A stretch of DNA of 64,000 bases from a virus (IMGVR_UViG_3300032301_001148:12049-76048), one strand, 5' to 3'. Counted from the stretch's first letter, positions 2,741-56,167 are shown. Program-made: numbers and translations. The notes: generated from the sequence alone by a model not told the origin.

Positions 2741-4678
2741 ATGGCAGATAATAAAAATAAATATAACAGTTTGTCTAAGAAGAATCCACGCAATAGTCAA
2801 TCGCCGCTATATACTGGTTTGACTAGATTATTTTCTGGTCCATTAGCTAGCTTTCGTTCACAGGCACAAATTCGTTATAAGCGTCGTGATTTAGACCGCT
2901 ATAAGTTTACTTCTGCTAGTGGTCAAGCCTTTAAGAAAAAGTCCTATAACCCATTTGAAGCCATTCAAAGCAACATTATGGCCAACCAAAGTCGTGCTGA
3001 GCGTTACAGCGACTTTGACCAAATGGAATTCATGCCGGAAATTGCTTCTGCATTAGATATATATGCCGATGAAATGACAACATGTAATTCTTTTAGACAA
3101 GTATTAATAGTTGACAGCAAAAATGAAGAAATAAAAAATATTCTTTATAATCTTTATTATAATATTTTGAATCTAGAAACAAATTTATTTTCTTGGTGCA
3201 GAACCATGTGTAAATTTGGTGATTTCTTTCTTTATTTAGATATTGATGAAAAATTAGGAATTAAGTCTTGCTTAGGATTGCCTTCACCAGAAGTAGAAAG
3301 ACTAGAAGGCGAAGATGAAAGCAATCCTAACTATGTTCAATTCCAATGGAACAGTGCTGGAATGACATTTGAAAATTGGCAAATTGCACACTTTAGAGTA
3401 TTAGGACAGGATAAATATGGTCCATATGGTACCTCTATTCTAGAACCAGCTAGACGTATATGGCGTCAACTACAATTGATGGAAGATGCGATGATGGCAT
3501 ATCGTATTGTTCGTGCCCCTGACCGTCGTGTATTTTATATAGACGTTGGAAACGTAGCACCGGCTGAAGTAGAACAATTCATGCAAAAAATTATTACTCA
3601 AATGAAACGTAACCAAATAATAGACCCAAACACAGGTCGTGTTGATTTACGTTATAACCCAATGAGTATTGATGAAGATTACTTCTTGCCAGTTAGAGGT
3701 ACACAAGGTGGTACTAAAATTGATACACTTCCCGGTGGTCAATTTCAAGGTGATATTGATGACGTACAATATCTTCGTGATAAGCTATTTTCTGCTATTA
3801 AAGTTCCACAAGCATATCTTTCAAGCGCTAAAGATAAAGCTCCAGAAGACAAAAGCACATTAGCTCAAAAAGATATTCGTTTTGCTAGGACTGTACAAAG
3901 ATTGCAAAGAATTATTACTAGCGAATTAGAAAAAATTGGTATTATTCATCTTTATACACTTGGATATCGGAATGAAGATTTACTTAAGTTCAAAATTAAA
4001 CTAAATAATCCATCAAAAATCAGTGAATTACAAGAAATTGAACACTTTAAAGCACAACTAGAAGTGGCTGCATCAGCAAAAGAAAACGGTTTCTCTAAAC
4101 GTTGGATTTATGAAAATATCTTCCGTATGAATGATACAGATTTCTTGCGTATTCAACGTGATTTATATTACGACAAGCAAACTGAAAAAGCTATTGAAGC
4201 AGGAGAAGTAAGTGATACAGGAACAGTAGGCGGTGGTACCACGGCAGCTGATACAGCCGCATTAGGACTAGAAGGCGGCGAAGGTGAAGAAGCACCAGCG
4301 GGAGAAACATCAGCCGAAGAAACACCAGCTCCAGAGGAAGAATCTAATTTATTAGCGGCTCCAGCTAGAAGAGATGATTCATCTTATACAACTCCCGGTG
4401 CAAAAGGTAAAGTTTATACACCAGTAAAATATGATAGCCGTCCAAGTGGTGCCCGTTCAAGACATTTTGAAAGAACTCACACACCTGAATCTACTACCAG
4501 TAAATACAGAAATTTATTTGCCGGTAGCAAACCTTTGTCTCAAGCCAGTAAAGGAATATTTAATGAGTCATCAGAAGGTTTTGAGAGTGATGAAAAAATG
4601 TTGATGGACGTAGAAAATAAGCTCCAAATGCTTTCAAAAACACTACTTAAAGAAGATAAAGAATCGGAGAAAGAATAA
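2741..4678 (+). CDS. Portal protein (T4 gp20-like) with long acidic C-terminal extension
   Basis: RIVRAPDRRVFYIDVGN, EDYFLP, IDTLPGG and KDIRFAR motifs; follows terL. Confidence 0.93.
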   Translation: MADNKNKYNSLSKKNPRNSQSPLYTGLTRLFSGPLASFRSQAQIRYKRRDLDRYKFTSASGQAFKKKSYNPFEAIQSNIMANQSRAERYSDFDQMEFMPEIASALDIYADEMTTCNSFRQVLIVDSKNEEIKNILYNLYYNILNLETNLFSWCRTMCKFGDFFLYLDIDEKLGIKSCLGLPSPEVERLEGEDESNPNYVQFQWNSAGMTFENWQIAHFRVLGQDKYGPYGTSILEPARRIWRQLQLMEDAMMAYRIVRAPDRRVFYIDVGNVAPAEVEQFMQKIITQMKRNQIIDPNTGRVDLRYNPMSIDEDYFLPVRGTQGGTKIDTLPGGQFQGDIDDVQYLRDKLFSAIKVPQAYLSSAKDKAPEDKSTLAQKDIRFARTVQRLQRIITSELEKIGIIHLYTLGYRNEDLLKFKIKLNNPSKISELQEIEHFKAQLEVAASAKENGFSKRWIYENIFRMNDTDFLRIQRDLYYDKQTEKAIEAGEVSDTGTVGGGTTAADTAALGLEGGEGEEAPAGETSAEETPAPEEESNLLAAPARRDDSSYTTPGAKGKVYTPVKYDSRPSGARSRHFERTHTPESTTSKYRNLFAGSKPLSQASKGIFNESSEGFESDEKMLMDVENKLQMLSKTLLKEDKESEKE

Positions 4679-47846: not shown

Positions 47847-48043
47847 TGAATGATAATCCGCTAGCTGGAGAATTATGGTTAGATAAACATAATGATAATT
47901 ATTTATTTATCACCACTCAAAAAATGATGATTTCTTCTTCTCTTGACCAAGAATGGATTTGGTGGCATAATATAAGCTGTAACACAGTCGGTAATTCATC
48001 GTTAGAATATTTCTTAAACCGTTGCATAAAGGTAAACAAATAA
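47846..48043 (+). CDS. Small hypothetical protein
   Basis: TAATG overlaps on both sides. Confidence 0.55.
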   Translation: MNDNPLAGELWLDKHNDNYLFITTQKMMISSSLDQEWIWWHNISCNTVGNSSLEYFLNRCIKVNK

Positions 48044-50700
48044 TGAGCGAAAGAAAAAAGCCTAGCATTCCGTTTGCCAATTTGCATGGACACACCACGT
48101 ATTCGGTAAGTGATGGATTGGGCTATCCAGAAGAGCACGCCAACTTTGCAATTAGCAATGGTCTTGAAGGAATGGCTTTTACCGAACACGGTAATTGTAA
48201 TTCTTTCTCATATGCTTTTATGAAGGCAAAGAAGCTAAAGGAAGAAGGCAATAAATTTAAGATTTGCTACGGCATTGAAGCCTATATCCATCCGTCTATT
48301 CAGGATTGGAAACTGGAAAAGCAAAAGCACAAGGAAGATGCAAAGCTTTCCAAGCAAATTGATGAAGATGTTGGACTTGTTGTTGAAGACGAAAGCGAAA
48401 CCAAGAAGGGTATTCGCTCAACACTTAATCGTCGTTCTCATTTAGTTTTGCTTGCCCAGAATCAAAAGGGTCTAAACAACATTTTTAAGCTTGTTTCAGA
48501 TTCATATCGTGGGGATAACTTTTATCGTTTCCCACGTATGGATTATGAAATGCTCAAGAAGTATAATGAGGGAGTTATTGCAAGCTCTGCCTGCCTTGGT
48601 GGAGTGTTGAGCAATGATTATTGGGCAAACATAGATAAGGGAGAGAAGGCCGTTTATACAGCAATGGAAAAGACTGTCGGGAATATGATGGATATCTTTG
48701 GCGACCGCTTTTATGGTGAGTTGCAATGGGCAAACTATAAAGAGCAGCATATTGTAAATCAGTTTATCATTAATCTTTCCAAACAATTTGGTTTCAAGCT
48801 TATCAGCACTTGTGATGCACATTTTCCTTCACCAGATATGTGGAAGGACCGTGAGATTTATAAGATGCTTGGTTGGCTTGGAAAAGGTAAGAATGAACTT
48901 AAGATTGATGCACTTCCACACACATTGGAAGAAATGGAATACCAACTTTATCCCAAAAATGGTGACGAACTATTCGCAACGTATAAGCGTTTTTCAGGCG
49001 CTCTTGGATTTAGCTACGATGATAAATTGGTAGAGGAGAGTATCGCTCGTACTGCGGATATTCTCAAGAATCGTATTGAAGATTATATGCCTGATACAAG
49101 TGTTAAGCTTCCGTCCTTCGTTGTTCCAGAAGGTGAAACGGCTGATAGTGCATTGGCAAAGATTGCCGTTGATGCACTAAAGAATACTGGTCTATACAAA
49201 GATAATGATTATGTTTCCAGACTTAAGGAAGAACTCCACACCATTAAGGACCGTGGATTCTCTAAGTATTTCCTTACAATGAAAAAGATTTCCGATAAGT
49301 CTAAGGAAGTCCAGCTTTGCGGTGGAGGTCGTGGTTCAGGAGCAGGTTCGCTTGTATCTTATTTATTGAATATTACCGAAGTAGACCCAATCAAATATAA
49401 GCTTCAGTTCAGCAGATTTATCCGCAAGACGGATACGAATCTTCCTGATATTGACTTTGACGTTTCCGACCCGATGGAAATCAAGGAAATGTTTATCAAG
49501 GAATTCGGTGAGAACACTGTTGTTCCTATCTCAAATTATAACACTCTAAAGGCTCGCTCTCTTGTTAAGGATATCAGCAAGCTATATGGTATTCCTTTTA
49601 CAGAGGTAAATGAAGTTACGTCCAAAATGATTCATGAGGCAACTCCTGTCTGTAAGAAGATTCATGGAATTATTGCGGGTGTGTATGAGCCTACTTGGGA
49701 AGAGTTAAAGGAGCATTCTCCTTCTCTTGTGTTATATCTAAAGAAGTATCCGCACGTTGCGACACACGTTGATAACTTGCAGAAGCAAGTTCGTTCAATC
49801 TCTCGCCATGCTGGTGGTGTATTGTTTGCAGATAATATAGATGAGAAAATGCCGCTAATTAATAGCGGTGGCATTATTCAAACTCCTTGGACCGAAGGGC
49901 AAACAGTTCGTCACTTGGAACCCCTTGGTTGGGTTAAGTTTGACGTGTTAGGTTTAGCTTCTCTCCGCATGATTGAAGGTGCGATTGAGCATATCTTGAA
50001 GCGGCACCACAATATGCCAAATCCAAGCTTTGCGGATATCAAAAAGTATTACAACGAAAAGCTACATCCAGAAAAGATTGACCTAAATGACGAAGGTGTA
50101 TATAAGCATATCTTTAATGAAGGCAACTTCTGTGGAACGTTCCAGTTCACCAGTAAGAATGCACAGAAATTCTGCATGCAAGCAAAGCCAAAGAACATTG
50201 TAGATATTGCCGCTATTACGTCTATTTTCCGTCCCGGTCCATTATCAGCAAACGTACATGAAAATTATATCACTGCAAAAAATAATACTGATACGATTCG
50301 CTATGCTCACCCACTAATTAAAGAGGTAACACAAGACACATTTGGCTTCCTTGTATTCCAAGAACAATTAAGCCTACTCGCTCATAAACTAGGCAAGGAT
50401 ATCTCGCTGGATGAAGGCAACGAACTCAGAAAAGTTCTTACAAAGAAAGGCACTGGAAAAGAGGCTCAAGTTAAAGAGAAACTGTACAGCAAGTTCATTG
50501 CCGGTTGCACCGAAAAAGGTCTTTCAGAGGATGACGGAATCTCTCTTTGGAAGACTATGGAATTCTTCTCAGGATATGGCTTTAACCTTTCTCATGCTAT
50601 CTGTTATTCTATACTTTCTTATCAGTGTGCTTATCTTTTCTATCATTACCCTGCTGAATGGCTTGCTGCATTTCTTGATGCGGAATCGGGAATAATTTAA
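48043..50700 (+). CDS. dnaE: DNA polymerase III alpha, N-terminal fragment (PHP, palm, thumb, part of fingers)
   Basis: LHGHTTYS.SDG, GRGSGAGSL, PDIDFD, HAGG, KFDVLGL, RPGP, YGFNLSHA..Y; stops just after YPAEWLAAFLDAESG. Confidence 0.95.
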   Translation: MSERKKPSIPFANLHGHTTYSVSDGLGYPEEHANFAISNGLEGMAFTEHGNCNSFSYAFMKAKKLKEEGNKFKICYGIEAYIHPSIQDWKLEKQKHKEDAKLSKQIDEDVGLVVEDESETKKGIRSTLNRRSHLVLLAQNQKGLNNIFKLVSDSYRGDNFYRFPRMDYEMLKKYNEGVIASSACLGGVLSNDYWANIDKGEKAVYTAMEKTVGNMMDIFGDRFYGELQWANYKEQHIVNQFIINLSKQFGFKLISTCDAHFPSPDMWKDREIYKMLGWLGKGKNELKIDALPHTLEEMEYQLYPKNGDELFATYKRFSGALGFSYDDKLVEESIARTADILKNRIEDYMPDTSVKLPSFVVPEGETADSALAKIAVDALKNTGLYKDNDYVSRLKEELHTIKDRGFSKYFLTMKKISDKSKEVQLCGGGRGSGAGSLVSYLLNITEVDPIKYKLQFSRFIRKTDTNLPDIDFDVSDPMEIKEMFIKEFGENTVVPISNYNTLKARSLVKDISKLYGIPFTEVNEVTSKMIHEATPVCKKIHGIIAGVYEPTWEELKEHSPSLVLYLKKYPHVATHVDNLQKQVRSISRHAGGVLFADNIDEKMPLINSGGIIQTPWTEGQTVRHLEPLGWVKFDVLGLASLRMIEGAIEHILKRHHNMPNPSFADIKKYYNEKLHPEKIDLNDEGVYKHIFNEGNFCGTFQFTSKNAQKFCMQAKPKNIVDIAAITSIFRPGPLSANVHENYITAKNNTDTIRYAHPLIKEVTQDTFGFLVFQEQLSLLAHKLGKDISLDEGNELRKVLTKKGTGKEAQVKEKLYSKFIAGCTEKGLSEDDGISLWKTMEFFSGYGFNLSHAICYSILSYQCAYLFYHYPAEWLAAFLDAESGII

Positions 50701-50762
50701 AATATCATACTACTTATAGTAAGATGGTTGGCGGCATTTCTTACTATTATGGAGAAAATGAT

Positions 50763-51458
50763 ATGATGGGTATTTATAAAATAACTAATAAAATAAACGG
50801 ATTAATTTATATAGGTAGTTCTAAAAATATAGAATATCGCTGGAGAAAGCATAAGGAAATGTTGGAAAGTGATAGACATTATAACTGTCATTTACAAAGT
50901 AGTTGGAATAAATACGGCTCCGAAAACTTTATTTTTGAAGTTTTAGAAGAAACAACAAAAAATCATTTATTAATTAGAGAGCAGTATTATTTAGACACCT
51001 TGACTCCTTTTGATACTTTAGGCTATAATGCCTGTAAGATTGCTGGTTCTCCTTTGGGCTATAAACATACCGAAGAAACTATAGAGAAAAGAAGAAAAAT
51101 ACTTAAAGGTAGAACAGTGAGCGAAGAAACAAGAAAAAAAATTGGTGATAAATTAAGAGGCAAAAAACGCTCTCCAGAACAAATAAAAAAATTTTCTGAA
51201 GTACAAAAAACAAGATGGGAAAAAATGTCGGATGAAGAAAAAAGTTTAAAAAAGCAAGAAGTTAAAGAACATTTTGCCAAATATCCAAAAAAAATAAGCG
51301 AAGAAACAAAAGAAAAAATAAGGCTTTCTCTCCTTGGAAGAAAAAGACCAAAAGAATTTTGTGAAAAAATGTCAAAGATTAGAAAAGGTAAAAAACTTTC
51401 CGAAGAAACAAAACAGAAATTAAGGGAAATAGCAAAAGAAAGAAAAAATAATGAGTGA
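50763..51458 (+). CDS. GIY-YIG homing endonuclease with NUMOD3-like repeats, inserted in dnaE
   Basis: GIYKITN...YIGSS, R...H, E..Y, YN motifs, HTEET/SEETK repeats; GGAG RBS 8 nt before the ATG at 50763. Confidence 0.93.
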   Translation: MMGIYKITNKINGLIYIGSSKNIEYRWRKHKEMLESDRHYNCHLQSSWNKYGSENFIFEVLEETTKNHLLIREQYYLDTLTPFDTLGYNACKIAGSPLGYKHTEETIEKRRKILKGRTVSEETRKKIGDKLRGKKRSPEQIKKFSEVQKTRWEKMSDEEKSLKKQEVKEHFAKYPKKISEETKEKIRLSLLGRKRPKEFCEKMSKIRKGKKLSEETKQKLREIAKERKNNE

Positions 51459-52245
51459 CATTGTAAATATTGAAAAGGCTATTGCAATGGTAAAAACTTT
51501 TGGTTTTGAAATAAAACCATTAGATATAAATACGTCCGGTGTTCGCTGGGGTATATCAGATGATGGTAAAACATTAATCCAACCTCTATCTTCTATTAAA
51601 GGTCTTGGCGATACTGCTATGGCGGAAATCATGAAGCACCGTCCATTTAGGGACGTAGAACATTTACTGTTCAGTGAAGATATTGTTTACAGCAAGCTAA
51701 ACAAGAAAGCTTTGGACGCATTAACACGCAGCGGAGCTATGAATAATCTAATGGATAAAAGATTTACTGGATTAAAGCACTTCTGGTCTGCTGTTGTAGT
51801 AGACCGTCCAAAGAATGTTAAGAAGCTACATGAAAACATTGACAAGTATAAGCCAGAAGGAGATTTCACAACTGAAGAAACAATTGAAAATCTAACTTCA
51901 CTTTCTGGTGTATATCCAATCAACCTTGTCGTTGATGCGAAAACACTAAAGAACATTGAAGATAAATATATACCTCCTATTGGAGATTACGACCCAGCAT
52001 TAGGAGAAGTTGTTTGGTTTATTCCTCGTAAGATTACAGAAAAGAAAACAAAGAATGGAAAGATGTTTTGGATTCTTGAAGTTACCGATATTACAAACAA
52101 GATTACCAATATCAAGTGCTGGGGAGTAAATCCAGAAAAGGATAAGATTTGGCTTAACAGACCATATCTTGGTAAGTTACAGTACGATGAAACATGGGGA
52201 TTTAGTACCAGAAGTATTAAGCACACATTTAAACTATTAGGATAA
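51451..52245 (+). CDS. dnaE: DNA polymerase III alpha, C-terminal fragment (HhH, OB fold)
   Basis: PLDINTS, LSSIKGLG, GAMNNL and OB-fold motifs; own ATG overlapping the endonuclease stop. Confidence 0.9.
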   Translation: MSDIVNIEKAIAMVKTFGFEIKPLDINTSGVRWGISDDGKTLIQPLSSIKGLGDTAMAEIMKHRPFRDVEHLLFSEDIVYSKLNKKALDALTRSGAMNNLMDKRFTGLKHFWSAVVVDRPKNVKKLHENIDKYKPEGDFTTEETIENLTSLSGVYPINLVVDAKTLKNIEDKYIPPIGDYDPALGEVVWFIPRKITEKKTKNGKMFWILEVTDITNKITNIKCWGVNPEKDKIWLNRPYLGKLQYDETWGFSTRSIKHTFKLLG

Positions 52246-53682: not shown

Positions 53683-53917
53683 AACTGGTAATAAAACAAA
53701 TAAGCTTAAAAATAGAATGGCTCAACAGGCCAGTATGATTTTAAATATTCCTGATAATTGTAAAATTTGTAATGAACCATTTGACAAGAAGAACAAAATG
53801 ATGGTAATGTCATGGTTCGTTGAAGTCTATAACGAACAAAAACGTGTAGATTTATATTGCCCAAAATGCAATGAAGATAGGAAAAGTCATGAAACTTCAA
53901 GAAACACTAACATTTGA
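53666..53917 (+). CDS. Hypothetical CxxC protein
   Basis: CKIC...FD and LYCPKC. Confidence 0.6.
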   Translation: MGSRSKTGNKTNKLKNRMAQQASMILNIPDNCKICNEPFDKKNKMMVMSWFVEVYNEQKRVDLYCPKCNEDRKSHETSRNTNI

Positions 53918-54722
53918 TGATGTTTTGCTGGTACCACAATATAGCGATATTGAATCTAGGAAACAAACTGATATTTCTTCCCTTCTTGATAATACAATCA
54001 AGTTACAAATACCTATTATCTCAAGTCCAATGGATACTGTAACTGGCCAAGTAATGGCTTGTGAAATAAGCATTCTTGGTGGTTTAGGAATATTACATAG
54101 ATACAATACGCCTGACCAACAGGCAGATATGGTTAAATACTGCAAAGATAATAAGGCTGGCTCTGTAGGTGCTGCGGTTGGGTCTACTGGTGACTTTCTA
54201 GAAAGAACAGAAAAGCTATTAAACGCTGGTGTTAATGTTCTATGTGTAGATGTAGCTCATGGCGACCATATATCAGTAAAGAATGCTATTGCAGCCATAA
54301 GAGCAAAGTTTGGCTATAAGATACACATAATGGCAGGCAACGTAGCCACCAAAGAAGCTTTTGAGCGTTTGTCTGATTGGGGTGCAGACAGTATACGTGT
54401 TGGTGTCGGCGGGGGATGTTTTATACCAGATACTCTAGTTCGTACAGAGAGTGGCTTAAAAAAAATACAAGAAATCCTCATAGGTGATTCAGTTTTTACT
54501 CACGATGGTAGTTTACAAACTGTAATTGATACAATGAAGTTTTATAAAAATGAAGAGATAATTTCTATTAATGGTATTGAATGCACTAAAAATCATGAAT
54601 TCTATGTAATAGAAAAAAAAGATGCCCATTTAGTAAATGATAACAATATTCATGAATATGCAAAATGGGTAGAGGCTGATTATTTAGATAAAGAAAGATA
54701 TTTATTAATTGAATTAGAATAG
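53889..54722 (+). CDS. guaB: IMPDH/GuaB-family N-terminal part (176 aa) fused to a split N-intein (101 aa)
   Basis: LTFDDVLLVP, SSPMDTV, VDVAHG, AGNVAT, RVGVGGG then CFIPDT... Confidence 0.92.
   Translation: MKLQETLTFDDVLLVPQYSDIESRKQTDISSLLDNTIKLQIPIISSPMDTVTGQVMACEISILGGLGILHRYNTPDQQADMVKYCKDNKAGSVGAAVGSTGDFLERTEKLLNAGVNVLCVDVAHGDHISVKNAIAAIRAKFGYKIHIMAGNVATKEAFERLSDWGADSIRVGVGGGCFIPDTLVRTESGLKKIQEILIGDSVFTHDGSLQTVIDTMKFYKNEEIISINGIECTKNHEFYVIEKKDAHLVNDNNIHEYAKWVEADYLDKERYLLIELE
54417..54719 (+). other. Split intein N-fragment
   Basis: Block A CFIPDTLV, block B CTKNHEF, ends LLIELE*; very like the IMPDH-1 N-intein as recalled. Confidence 0.92.
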
Positions 54723-54771
54723 GCAGCGGATTACCATGTTTGCACACTATTTACACTAGGAGGCACCACGT

Positions 54772-55572
54772 ATGACTATAGTATGCAAACAGTGTAAGAG
54801 GGAGTTTCTTACAAAAGATAAAAGACAAAAATATTGTTCAAAAAATTGTTATCATGACTTCAACACGGGTTCAAATAATCATTTTTTCTATTATAGAAAT
54901 TCCAAAGAAAAAATACAAAAAATAAATAAAATAAACTCTGATAATTTTAGGGGAGAAGGTAATCCTTTTTATGGTAAAAAACATTCTGACAATACAATAG
55001 AAAATATAAAAGAAAAAAATAGAATTTATAGAGAAAACAATAAAGAAAAAATAGAACAATCAAATTTAGATAGACTTAACTTAACTAAACAAAAAATAAT
55101 TGATATTTTTAACGAATATAAAAATACACATTTAAATTTTCAAAGTATTGAAGAAAAATATAATGTAGATAAAAGAGTATTAAAAAAATACTTTATAAAG
55201 CATGCTTGTACAAAAGAAGAATTAGAAAAAATTTGCTTTAATAAAAAATATAAAAACTCTACATCAGCTGGAGAAGAAACTTTATATTTGCTTTTATGTA
55301 ATCAATTTGGAAAAGAAAAAATAAAAAGACAGTTCAACTTATCTTTTTATTATTATGATTTTTTAGTTGATTCAAAATTAATAGTAGAGTATGATGGTTA
55401 TTATTGGCATCAAGTGTTAGAAAGTAACGATTTCATTAAAAATGAATTAGCTAAATCTAACAATTATGCGTTATATAGAGTTAGAGAAGACGAAAAAAGA
55501 AAAGTAGATTTTCTTAAAGAAATTAAAAATATAAAAGAGGCTATAAATGAAATTCAAGCTAAAGCCAATTAA
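54772..55572 (+). CDS. Vsr-like (DUF559-type) homing endonuclease between the IMPDH halves
   Basis: N-terminal CxxC...CS..C, NUMOD-like GEGNPFYGKKH, C-terminal YDF...IVEYDGYYWH; AGGAGG RBS. Confidence 0.85.
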   Translation: MTIVCKQCKREFLTKDKRQKYCSKNCYHDFNTGSNNHFFYYRNSKEKIQKINKINSDNFRGEGNPFYGKKHSDNTIENIKEKNRIYRENNKEKIEQSNLDRLNLTKQKIIDIFNEYKNTHLNFQSIEEKYNVDKRVLKKYFIKHACTKEELEKICFNKKYKNSTSAGEETLYLLLCNQFGKEKIKRQFNLSFYYYDFLVDSKLIVEYDGYYWHQVLESNDFIKNELAKSNNYALYRVREDEKRKVDFLKEIKNIKEAINEIQAKAN

Positions 55573-56167
55573 TCATATTGAAAAAAAATATTACACAGGT
55601 TTTGTTCACGACTTAACGGTACAAAAAAATCATTCTTACAATATAAATGGAACAATTGTTCATAATTCTATTTGTTCAACCAGAATTCAGACAGGCCATG
55701 GTGTTCCAACACTTTGGTCTGTTTCAGATTGCTCCAATACAACAAAAAGAGCAAAACTAATTGCCGATGGTGGTATAAAAACATCTGGCGATATAGTTAA
55801 AGCTTTAGCTGCTGGAGCAGATTTTGTTATGCTTGGTTCTATGCTAGCAGGCACAGATGTTTCACCGGGAGACATTTTTGAAGAAAACGGTAAACAATAT
55901 AAAGTTTATCGTGGAATGGCTAGCAAAGAAGCGCAAATAGATTGGAAGGGTAGCTATTCCAGCTTTGAAGGAGTAGCGTCTAAAATACTCTATAAGGGTT
56001 GTTTACCAAATATTCTAGAAGATATTACGAGAAATATTCGTAGCGGACTTTCATATAGTGGCGCAAATGACTTGGTAGAACTGCAAGCTAAGGCTAAATT
56101 TATTAAGCAATCTAGCGCTGCACAGATTGAAAGCTCGCCGCACATTTTAATTAAAAATGGAAAATAA
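55547..56167 (+). CDS. guaB: Split C-intein (40 aa, 55547-55666) fused to the IMPDH C-terminal part (166 aa)
   Basis: VHDLTV...HSY...IVHN|SICSTR, then IADGGI..SGDI.KAL and YRGMAS. Confidence 0.92.
   Translation: MKFKLKPINHIEKKYYTGFVHDLTVQKNHSYNINGTIVHNSICSTRIQTGHGVPTLWSVSDCSNTTKRAKLIADGGIKTSGDIVKALAAGADFVMLGSMLAGTDVSPGDIFEENGKQYKVYRGMASKEAQIDWKGSYSSFEGVASKILYKGCLPNILEDITRNIRSGLSYSGANDLVELQAKAKFIKQSSAAQIESSPHILIKNGK

Follow-up and report, generated by a model that had tools for sequence, protein, structure and literature searches.

The window analysed here is a stretch of 64,000 nucleotides from an uncultured freshwater phage (IMGVR_UViG_3300032301_001148:12049-76048). The one gene of a replicative DNA polymerase detected in this phage, dnaE, lies in two separate pieces. 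The open reading frame (ORF) list and Pfam give the order dnaE-N, a free-standing GIY-YIG/NUMOD3 endonuclease gene and dnaE-C, all on the + strand. The dnaE-N piece (48043..50700) starts with the ATG at 48043, has an alternative TTG start at 48022, stops at 50698-50700 and encodes 885 aa ending in YPAEWLAAFLDAESGII. It matches the Pfam domains PHP (PF02811), DNA_pol3_alpha (PF07733) and DNA_pol3_finger (PF17657) and covers the PHP domain, the palm and thumb and the larger part of the fingers in a polymerase of the Pol III alpha type. A spacer of 62 nt (50701..50762, +) follows. The endonuclease gene (50763..51458, +; 231 aa; TGA at 51456-58) is read in a frame different from that of dnaE. The dnaE-C piece (51451..52245, +) begins with MSDIVNIEKAIAMVKTFGF and encodes 264 aa, with one helix of the fingers, a duplex-binding module of two helix-hairpin-helix motifs, (HhH)2, and an OB domain; Pfam detects HHH_6. 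Its ATG at 51451 overlaps the endonuclease stop codon by 8 nt, and dnaE-N and dnaE-C share one reading frame. Three ORFs in a row at this place had been described in the initial annotation, with about 60 nt between the dnaE-N stop and the endonuclease ATG and with the endonuclease stop overlapping the ATG of the C-terminal part. The ORF list and Pfam bear this out, the two distances being 62 nt, counted to the ATG at 50763, and 8 nt.

The domain order PHP, Pol3 core (palm, thumb, fingers), (HhH)2 and OB, obtained from Pfam, alignments to PDB entries and a model of an intact relative, is that of a DnaE-type Pol III alpha of the C-family. On the PHROGs profile phrog_405, dnaE-N occupies positions 38-825 and dnaE-C positions 832-1039, i.e. 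adjacent stretches. A tau-binding C-terminal domain was found neither in dnaE-C nor in the intact relatives (~1144 aa). The window belongs to the record of a 76-kb viral contig with an estimated completeness of 38%, which holds one dnaE locus and one GIY-YIG gene.

Scans of IMG/VR revealed ~30 loci with a DnaE 55-97% identical to that of the window. In all of them the match to the N-terminal part is followed by 5 codons in frame and then by the match to the C-terminal part. A single uninterrupted DnaE ORF of 1142-1154 aa was confirmed in 22 related viral contigs; the other relatives are partial or frame-broken and still match across the junction without the cassette. The two window halves align end to end with intact DnaE and overlap by ~6 residues at one loop. 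Intact relatives read YPAEWLAAFLD-KEPExRK-EAAI at this junction, and the window reads WLAAFLD-AESGII, followed by a stop, and MSDIVNI-EKAI. The K, E, P, E and second K of the KEPExRK loop are invariant in 22/22 intact relatives. Neither AESGII nor MSDIVNI occurs in any intact relative of the junction alignment, which covered 27 relatives. AESGII with its TAA stop (50680..50700, +) is a cassette-derived C-terminal tail that stands for KEPEDR of the intact loop, and MSDIVNI (51451..51471, +) is a cassette-derived N-terminal head that forms the first residues of dnaE-C. At the DNA level, a blastn search of cultured phages gave no match, and the relatives found there at the protein level are only ~33% identical.

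No group I or group II intron family of Rfam matched at E<=10 over 50400-51800, and in six related or comparison loci only a tRNA reached the Rfam gathering score, no intron. Non-coding space is limited to the 62 nt 5' of the endonuclease gene and 0 nt 3' of it, and no choice of splice points restores KEPExRK. Inteins were searched with the N-terminal pieces of two relatives, L066 and L074, as positive controls, which end in split-intein halves and gave Intein_splicing/Hint signals at E ~2e-4. The last 100 residues of the window's N-part gave no Hint or Intein signal, and the first 100 residues of the C-part gave HHH_6 only. The broken ends carry 6 (N-part) and 7 (C-part) non-DnaE residues, too few to hold an intein. 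These results confirm that the window dnaE is an intein-less and intron-less gene fractured by a free-standing homing endonuclease. The initial annotation had already argued against an intron of group I or II and against an intein at either end, and its observation that the YGFNLSH motif is intact, with the break roughly 35-40 aa further on, was also correct (35 residues past the F of the motif). Its alignment proposal, applied to intact DnaE of related phages, placed the insertion site at the loop KEPExRK. The impression that no motif is lost was not quite right: this loop is replaced by the new tail and head.

Two further features were noticed among the intact relatives. In L001 (3659-5985, on the same contig as L028), a close relative, the N-part of dnaE matches in three frames and residues 108-146 and 749-811 are missing, so that this dnaE is either a decaying gene or poorly assembled; its junction with the C-part is intact and reads DKEPEDRKE. 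About 20 proteins of exactly 269 aa (among P0005-P0120) start at the Met of EWMAAFL with the sequence MAAFLDKEPE, and their sources flag several of them as complete. These are probably gene-caller starts at an internal Met at contig ends; alternatively, they may mark another break immediately upstream of the loop.

The break was then located in the enzyme. dnaE-N aligns to Escherichia coli alpha up to residue 790, to Taq alpha up to 847 and to Mycobacterium tuberculosis DnaE1 up to ~809, and residue 2 of dnaE-C aligns to E. coli alpha 789, which puts the break at about E. coli alpha 789-795. The intact protein of the relative L002 was modelled with AlphaFold2 (mean predicted local distance difference test score, pLDDT, 79.5). 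In this model the break corresponds to a two-residue turn, E882-P883, between the helices 871-881 and 884-896; the block 881-890 has a pLDDT of 71 and its neighbours 94 and 82, and OB strands lie at 1067-1133. Cryo-electron microscopy of the E. coli enzyme defined rigid bodies at 510-810 (palm-fingers) and 811-928 (tip of fingers, with the contacts to duplex DNA and the clamp motif at 920-925), followed by the tail at 929-1160 (PMC4703070). The break lies one helix before the 810/811 boundary between these rigid bodies (PMC4703070), and dnaE-C begins with one palm-fingers helix, followed by the HhH tip and the OB domain. We infer that the small chain is anchored to the large one by this first helix.

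The same break is used repeatedly. A search with the window C-part for stand-alone C-parts beginning at this loop detected it in at least four other phage lineages, one of them without an endonuclease. In L065 the pieces are of 885 and 264 aa, as in the window, around a GIY-YIG protein 66% identical to that of the window; the tail reads SYLD-LESGLI and the head MSDMGNI-EAAI. L067 has a middle piece of 454 aa, a GIY-YIG protein of 277 aa and a piece of 260 aa (AAFLQ-KHTK and MGMNM-EKAI). The group L070-L073, found on 14 contigs from JGI and ENA samples, has 877/880 aa, a GIY-YIG protein of 284 aa and 267 aa (AAFLQ-SETEK and MSKGL-EHAI). In L066 a middle piece of 459 aa is followed directly by one of 260 aa, with AGC TAA T ATG at the junction and no endonuclease (AAFLQ-METEKGS and MSKL-EKAI). 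The tail is followed by a stop in each case. The endonucleases of L067 and L070-73 are 37-43% identical to one another and to that of the window. In a DnaE tree the split forms are polyphyletic: the window, L065 and L067 each have an intact sister, L002, L007 and L032, respectively.

Other breaks were also observed in this gene. In L067 (1156-6783) and L066 (3-4727), dnaE lies in three pieces, the first break separating a piece of 523 aa from one of ~455 aa by a free-standing LAGLIDADG gene (323/340 aa). The tails of the first pieces gave weak Intein_splicing matches (E 2.5e-4 and 0.13). The second piece of L066 has a leader of ~35 aa ending in IRN before a T; the residue after the Asn appears to be Gly in L067, which would be unusual. 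The first break in L066 and L067 is probably a split intein. LAGLIDADG is not among the endonuclease types listed for fractured genes by Dassa et al. (PMC2677866). In a close syntenic relative, L074 (90-4901), dnaE is fractured in the classical manner: a first product of 939 aa combines DnaE-N with the N-intein, a Vsr-like endonuclease (DUF559, 318 aa) follows, and a last product of 335 aa combines the C-intein with DnaE-C. Here the FN(K/L)SH motif carries the split intein: the N side ends in GYGFNK before CLAADT and the C side in ISVSN before SHAICYS, ~35 residues upstream of the break of the window. P0051, P0099, P0112 and P0118 look like further C-intein forms. At 53871-56167 of the window, ORFs of 283, 266 and 206 aa, the last two overlapping, have a layout that fits a fractured IMPDH gene with a Vsr-like endonuclease. 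If so, one phage has both a split-intein and an intein-less fracture.

Two Bacillus phages were considered as precedents and rejected. In phage Edson (L076, PV796108.1) the annotated third dnaE piece at 4040-4434 is a mis-called exon. It starts mid-exon, and the upstream frame continues with NRSHAACY and later YPIEF; an intervening sequence of ~300 nt without an ORF lies at GYG|FNRSH, a hotspot that the L074 intein also occupies, and not at the loop of the window. This sequence reached no Rfam gathering score. In KLEB27-3 the break is near residue 730 and involves an HNH gene.

The flanks of the insertion carry a footprint of mobility. Between the window and L002, 296/300 nt are identical up to the junction, 45/90 after the conserved Glu of the C-part and 349/360 in the next 360 nt. 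In the window this foreign dnaE tract of ~90 nt (51472..51561, +) is a co-conversion tract and travels with the cassette. L065 and L007, an independent pair, are ~100% identical over ~1.4 kb upstream. The cassette and a diverged tract of ~120 nt follow, then 100% identity through the rest of dnaE, inside a downstream block of >5 kb that is 99% identical overall. Further out the two are mosaic genomes at 75-90% identity. We therefore did not keep the term near-isogenic for this pair, as its identity is confined to these ~1.4 kb upstream and >5 kb downstream and is not genome-wide. The foreign block consists of the tail with its stop, the spacer, the endonuclease gene, the head and ~30-40 codons of another dnaE allele, and the foreign dnaE tract is found only on the 3' side of the cassette. 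No direct repeats that would hint at excision were found around the cassette as a whole. The insert is a recently mobile cassette, judging from the patchy phylogeny and from foreign tracts that lie on one side only in both independent intact/split pairs. A one-sided tract is what homing with co-conversion would leave, and suggests a cut site 3' of the insertion point.

For the endonuclease, the ATG at 50763 (MMGIYKITN) is the most likely start, since GGAG (50751-50754) lies 8 nt upstream, the sources also call a product of 231 aa and the orthologue of L065 starts with MIGVYK; the in-frame ATG at 50724 would give 244 aa. The protein matches GIY-YIG PF01541 (E 1.9e-11) and NUMOD3 PF07460 of Pfam as well as homing-endonuclease families of PHROGs. 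Its residues 2-90 align to the I-TevI catalytic domain (1MK0/1LN0, E 1.5e-11), with the GIY and YIG motifs, the Asn of GYN and the residues mutated in 1LN0 (R27A) and 1MK0 (E75A) all kept. The ratio of nonsynonymous to synonymous substitution rates (dN/dS) against the L065 orthologue is 0.12. From its sequence, the endonuclease looks active. A third variant of this endonuclease type, 75% identical, was present on three short contigs. Related free-standing GIY-YIG genes, 36-47% identical to that of the window, lie directly upstream of intact dnaE in L007 (3813-4520), L017 (3984-4550) and L020 (3803-4540), L007 being the intact member of the pair L065/L007. Evidently, the surroundings of dnaE are a hotspot for endonucleases of this family.

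The spacer contains an 18-mer (50710-50727) that is identical in L065 and, at 50724-50742, a second partial copy of the target, ATGGTTGGCGGCATTTCTT (family D6), 84% identical to 50658-50676. Its hairpin, with stems at 50716-50724 and 50739-50747, is supported solely by its conservation in two cassettes, as the z-scores against shuffled sequences are weak (-1.7 and -0.2). Several ideas about the spacer were dropped. The second WLAAFL copy was considered as coding DNA under selection: in codon register the differences between window and L065 are synonymous only. A one-base indel alignment that keeps the hairpin arm needs 3 substitutions; this signal is weak and was not relied on. ACTACTTAT was considered as a phage promoter motif: it is not enriched in the window, which has 1 exact copy and, at one mismatch, 8 copies against 4.8 expected; the motif also occurs in the spacer of the unrelated endonuclease of L074, but is absent upstream of the IMPDH endonuclease of the window. 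The 18-mer CTACTTATAGTAAGATGG, used as a cassette probe, hit 0 viral contigs and 7 metagenome contigs, all by chance in unrelated genes.

The observations can be joined in the following scheme. A mobile cassette built on a free-standing GIY-YIG homing endonuclease gene has inserted into dnaE, at the short turn that separates the final helix of the palm-fingers body from the one leading to the HhH 'tip-of-fingers' module. The cassette supplies the 6-residue tail and stop for the upstream half, then a spacer with the endonuclease's own translation signals, then the endonuclease gene, the 3' end of which provides a purine-rich ribosome-binding stretch, the ATG and the 7-residue head for the downstream half. 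Splicing of RNA or protein would not be involved, and the products would be a catalytic chain of 885 aa and a DNA-binding chain of 264 aa (HhH and OB). These chains would reassemble non-covalently, probably through the existing fingers/HhH interface and perhaps aided by the new tail and head. The endonuclease would spread by cutting intact dnaE alleles of co-infecting relatives, and repair would copy in the cassette together with ~90-125 nt of donor dnaE on its 3' side.

We consider it likely that a mobile cassette split dnaE in this way and that the two chains, made without splicing, reassemble into a working polymerase. Assembly and activity are what we infer from several features of the sequences. 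Every piece has an open ORF in all split lineages. In the dnaE segment carried by the cassette, window and L065 differ with a pN (nonsynonymous) of 0.25 and a pS (synonymous) of 0.94, the latter being saturated. The tail xESG[IL]I with its stop and the head MSD..NIE are conserved as protein between these two cassettes, and the Ser codon of the head is AGT in the window and TCT in L065, which suggests that the peptide is constrained rather than the DNA. L066 keeps the split without an endonuclease. In all five lineages a purine-rich or AGGAGG-like stretch precedes the ATG of the C-part, and this ATG lies next to the stop of the piece before it or overlaps that stop. No + strand terminator was found between the pieces; this arrangement is consistent with co-transcription and with coupled translation. 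Of the sigma-70-like sequences in the region, the best one (TTGACT, 18 nt, TATAAT; 11/12) lies at 51000-51029 (+) inside the endonuclease ORF, ~420 nt upstream of the dnaE-C start, and the overall promoter count was not above that of shuffled sequences. This candidate promoter could give dnaE-C a transcript of its own.

Several points weigh against a functional two-chain enzyme. All evidence comes from metagenomic contigs. The replaced KEPExRK loop is invariant in intact relatives, so that something may be lost. The dN/dS of the window halves against intact relatives (0.12-0.18) mostly reflects history before the insertion and was down-weighted because the divergence largely predates it, and the most closely related intact/split pairs have diverged too little for a test of selection after the insertion. 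The tail and head are only 6-7 residues long for their putative role in assembly. With the record estimated as 38% complete, a second, intact dnaE elsewhere in the genome is possible.

The split gene might accordingly be dead or dispensable: the insertion would be a recent hit, tolerated or harmful, and the phage would replicate with another polymerase, e.g. that of the host, and have no working DnaE. The near identity of the closest intact/split pairs outside the cassette leaves little time since those insertions, which speaks for this reading, as does the lost invariant loop. However, the cassette lineages are old (endonucleases 37-66% identical), the dnaE segment that they carry is still open and constrained, and both halves are open in five lineages, one of them on 14 contigs from several samples. 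Moreover, L066 has retained the split after loss of the endonuclease, and the near-complete relatives (162-191 kb, n = 5) have exactly one dnaE each. We regard a dead or dispensable gene as improbable.

An unrecognised self-splicing RNA, i.e. a group I-like intron with a GIY-YIG ORF that restores one mRNA, is still less probable. Many GIY-YIG endonucleases are intron-encoded, the sources label relatives of this one 'group I intron endonuclease', the N- and C-parts are in the same frame and the spacer contains a conserved hairpin. The Rfam search speaks against it, with no intron match at E<=10 in the window or at gathering threshold in the sister loci, as do the 62 nt and the complete lack of non-coding sequence on the two sides of the endonuclease gene and the loop that cannot be restored. 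In addition, L066 has 1 nt between stop and ATG, and the C-part has its own ATG and ribosome-binding stretch in every lineage.

Joining of the two chains after translation, by protein trans-splicing or another ligation, was given very little credence. It would have parallels in the same phage group, whose dnaE has split inteins at other sites (L074, and probably the first break of L066 and L067). Against it stand the mere 6 and 7 non-DnaE residues at the ends, among which there is neither a Cys/Ser/Thr-initiated N-intein nor an ending in HN or SN followed by a nucleophile, and the lack of a Hint/Intein signal in the window in a scan that was positive in the split-intein relatives. An assembly or sequencing artefact such as a chimeric contig, conceivable for a record that is a single metagenomic contig, is practically negligible, since identical proteins of 885, 231/244 and 264 aa are on record from JGI/IMG (the 76-kb contig) and Logan/ENA (a contig of 182,240 bp), i.e. 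from independent sources and assemblies, and L065, L067 and L070-73 from other samples have the same architecture.

If the two-chain polymerase works, a more far-reaching reading is possible, which we put forward tentatively. The turn WLAAFLD|KEPExRK|E would be a natural, repeatedly used 'safe' split site of replicative polymerases of the C-family, at which the catalytic core and the HhH-OB module facing DNA and clamp work as separate subunits. Such a split may become fixed, as in L066, or a split-intein break may be added to it, so that DnaE comes from three genes. The tail and head may be required elements of assembly, by analogy with NrdA of Aeh1. I-TevI regulates itself at its own promoter; in a similar way, the endonuclease of the window could regulate itself through the second target copy in the spacer hairpin, if this copy acts as an operator-like mimic of the homing site.

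The nrdA gene of Aeromonas phage Aeh1 is split by mobE, as Friedrich et al. reportedly described in 2007. The analogy with this system, drawn in the initial annotation, is apt (PMC3045599, PMC2677866). In both cases an essential gene of DNA metabolism forms two ORFs around a free-standing homing endonuclease gene, introns and inteins are lacking, the pieces stand in one operon-like row and both polypeptides have new short tails that arose with the insertion. The insertion-created tails of Aeh1 are essential for activity (Crona et al. 2010, PMC3045599); function and tail role are experimental in Aeh1 and deduced from sequence in the window. The split gene encodes the large subunit of ribonucleotide reductase in Aeh1 and a C-family polymerase here, and mobE is of the HNH type (PMC2677866) whereas the endonuclease of the window is GIY-YIG. 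Unlike that of Aeh1, the split of the window recurs in several lineages, in one without the endonuclease.

Other split polymerases differ in other respects. The family B polymerase gp43 of Aeromonas phage 25 (Petrov, Karam and co-workers) is cited in PMC2677866 as split, with a GIY-YIG gene between the halves. As in these T4-like Aeromonas phages, as far as that citation describes them, a phage replicative polymerase is made from two genes in the window, but family and fold are C instead of B, so the break point is unrelated. Cyanobacterial split DnaE, according to the work cited in PMC2677866 (Wu et al. 1998; Caspi et al. 2003), has its halves at separate loci and is rejoined by trans-splicing beside FNKSH. 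There, too, a catalytic subunit comes from two genes; going by those citations, the window differs in that its halves are adjacent and intein-less and in its break site. Dassa et al. 2009 reported three fractured DnaE loci, all with split inteins, and noted that intein-less genes are also fractured by endonucleases (PMC2677866); no mention of DnaE was found among the intein-less cases in that paper. The fractured genes of Dassa et al. share with the window the order half, free-standing GIY-YIG or Vsr-like endonuclease, half, the overlap of the endonuclease 3' end with the downstream start, a hairpin upstream of the endonuclease and an origin in aquatic phages. Unlike the window, they carry split-intein halves that ligate the product; as the window has none, its product would stay as two chains. 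The endonuclease itself resembles I-TevI of the T4 td intron (PDB 1MK0, 1LN0) in its catalytic domain with the key residues, and NUMOD3 repeats follow as in modular GIY-YIG enzymes, but I-TevI is intron-encoded and the gene of the window is free-standing.

The PHP-Pol3-(HhH)2 region is nearly universal in bacterial C-family polymerases, and a survey of this family noted only intein-mediated splits, apart from fragments ascribed mostly to frameshifts (PMC3919608). No description of an intein-less DnaE split was found in the searchable literature, an absence that is not proof. Intein-less fracture by endonucleases is known for other genes, and the C-family polymerase is a new and important host enzyme for it, in which mobility and repeated use of a single hinge are unusually well documented.

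Pol III alpha is normally a single chain, and a natural two-chain form, with three chains in some relatives, shows where a break is tolerated. The break adjoins a rigid-body boundary that moves on DNA binding (PMC4703070) and thereby offers a split site that already exists in nature to those who wish to dissect or engineer C-family polymerases. The pairs window/L002 and L065/L007, nearly identical around the site, provide clean material for the study of homing, the length of co-conversion and the fitness cost of fracture, and illustrate how endonucleases mark recombination boundaries in phage genomes. Finally, sister phages with a split-intein and an intein-less break 35 residues apart in dnaE allow a direct comparison of two ways to survive endonuclease invasion.

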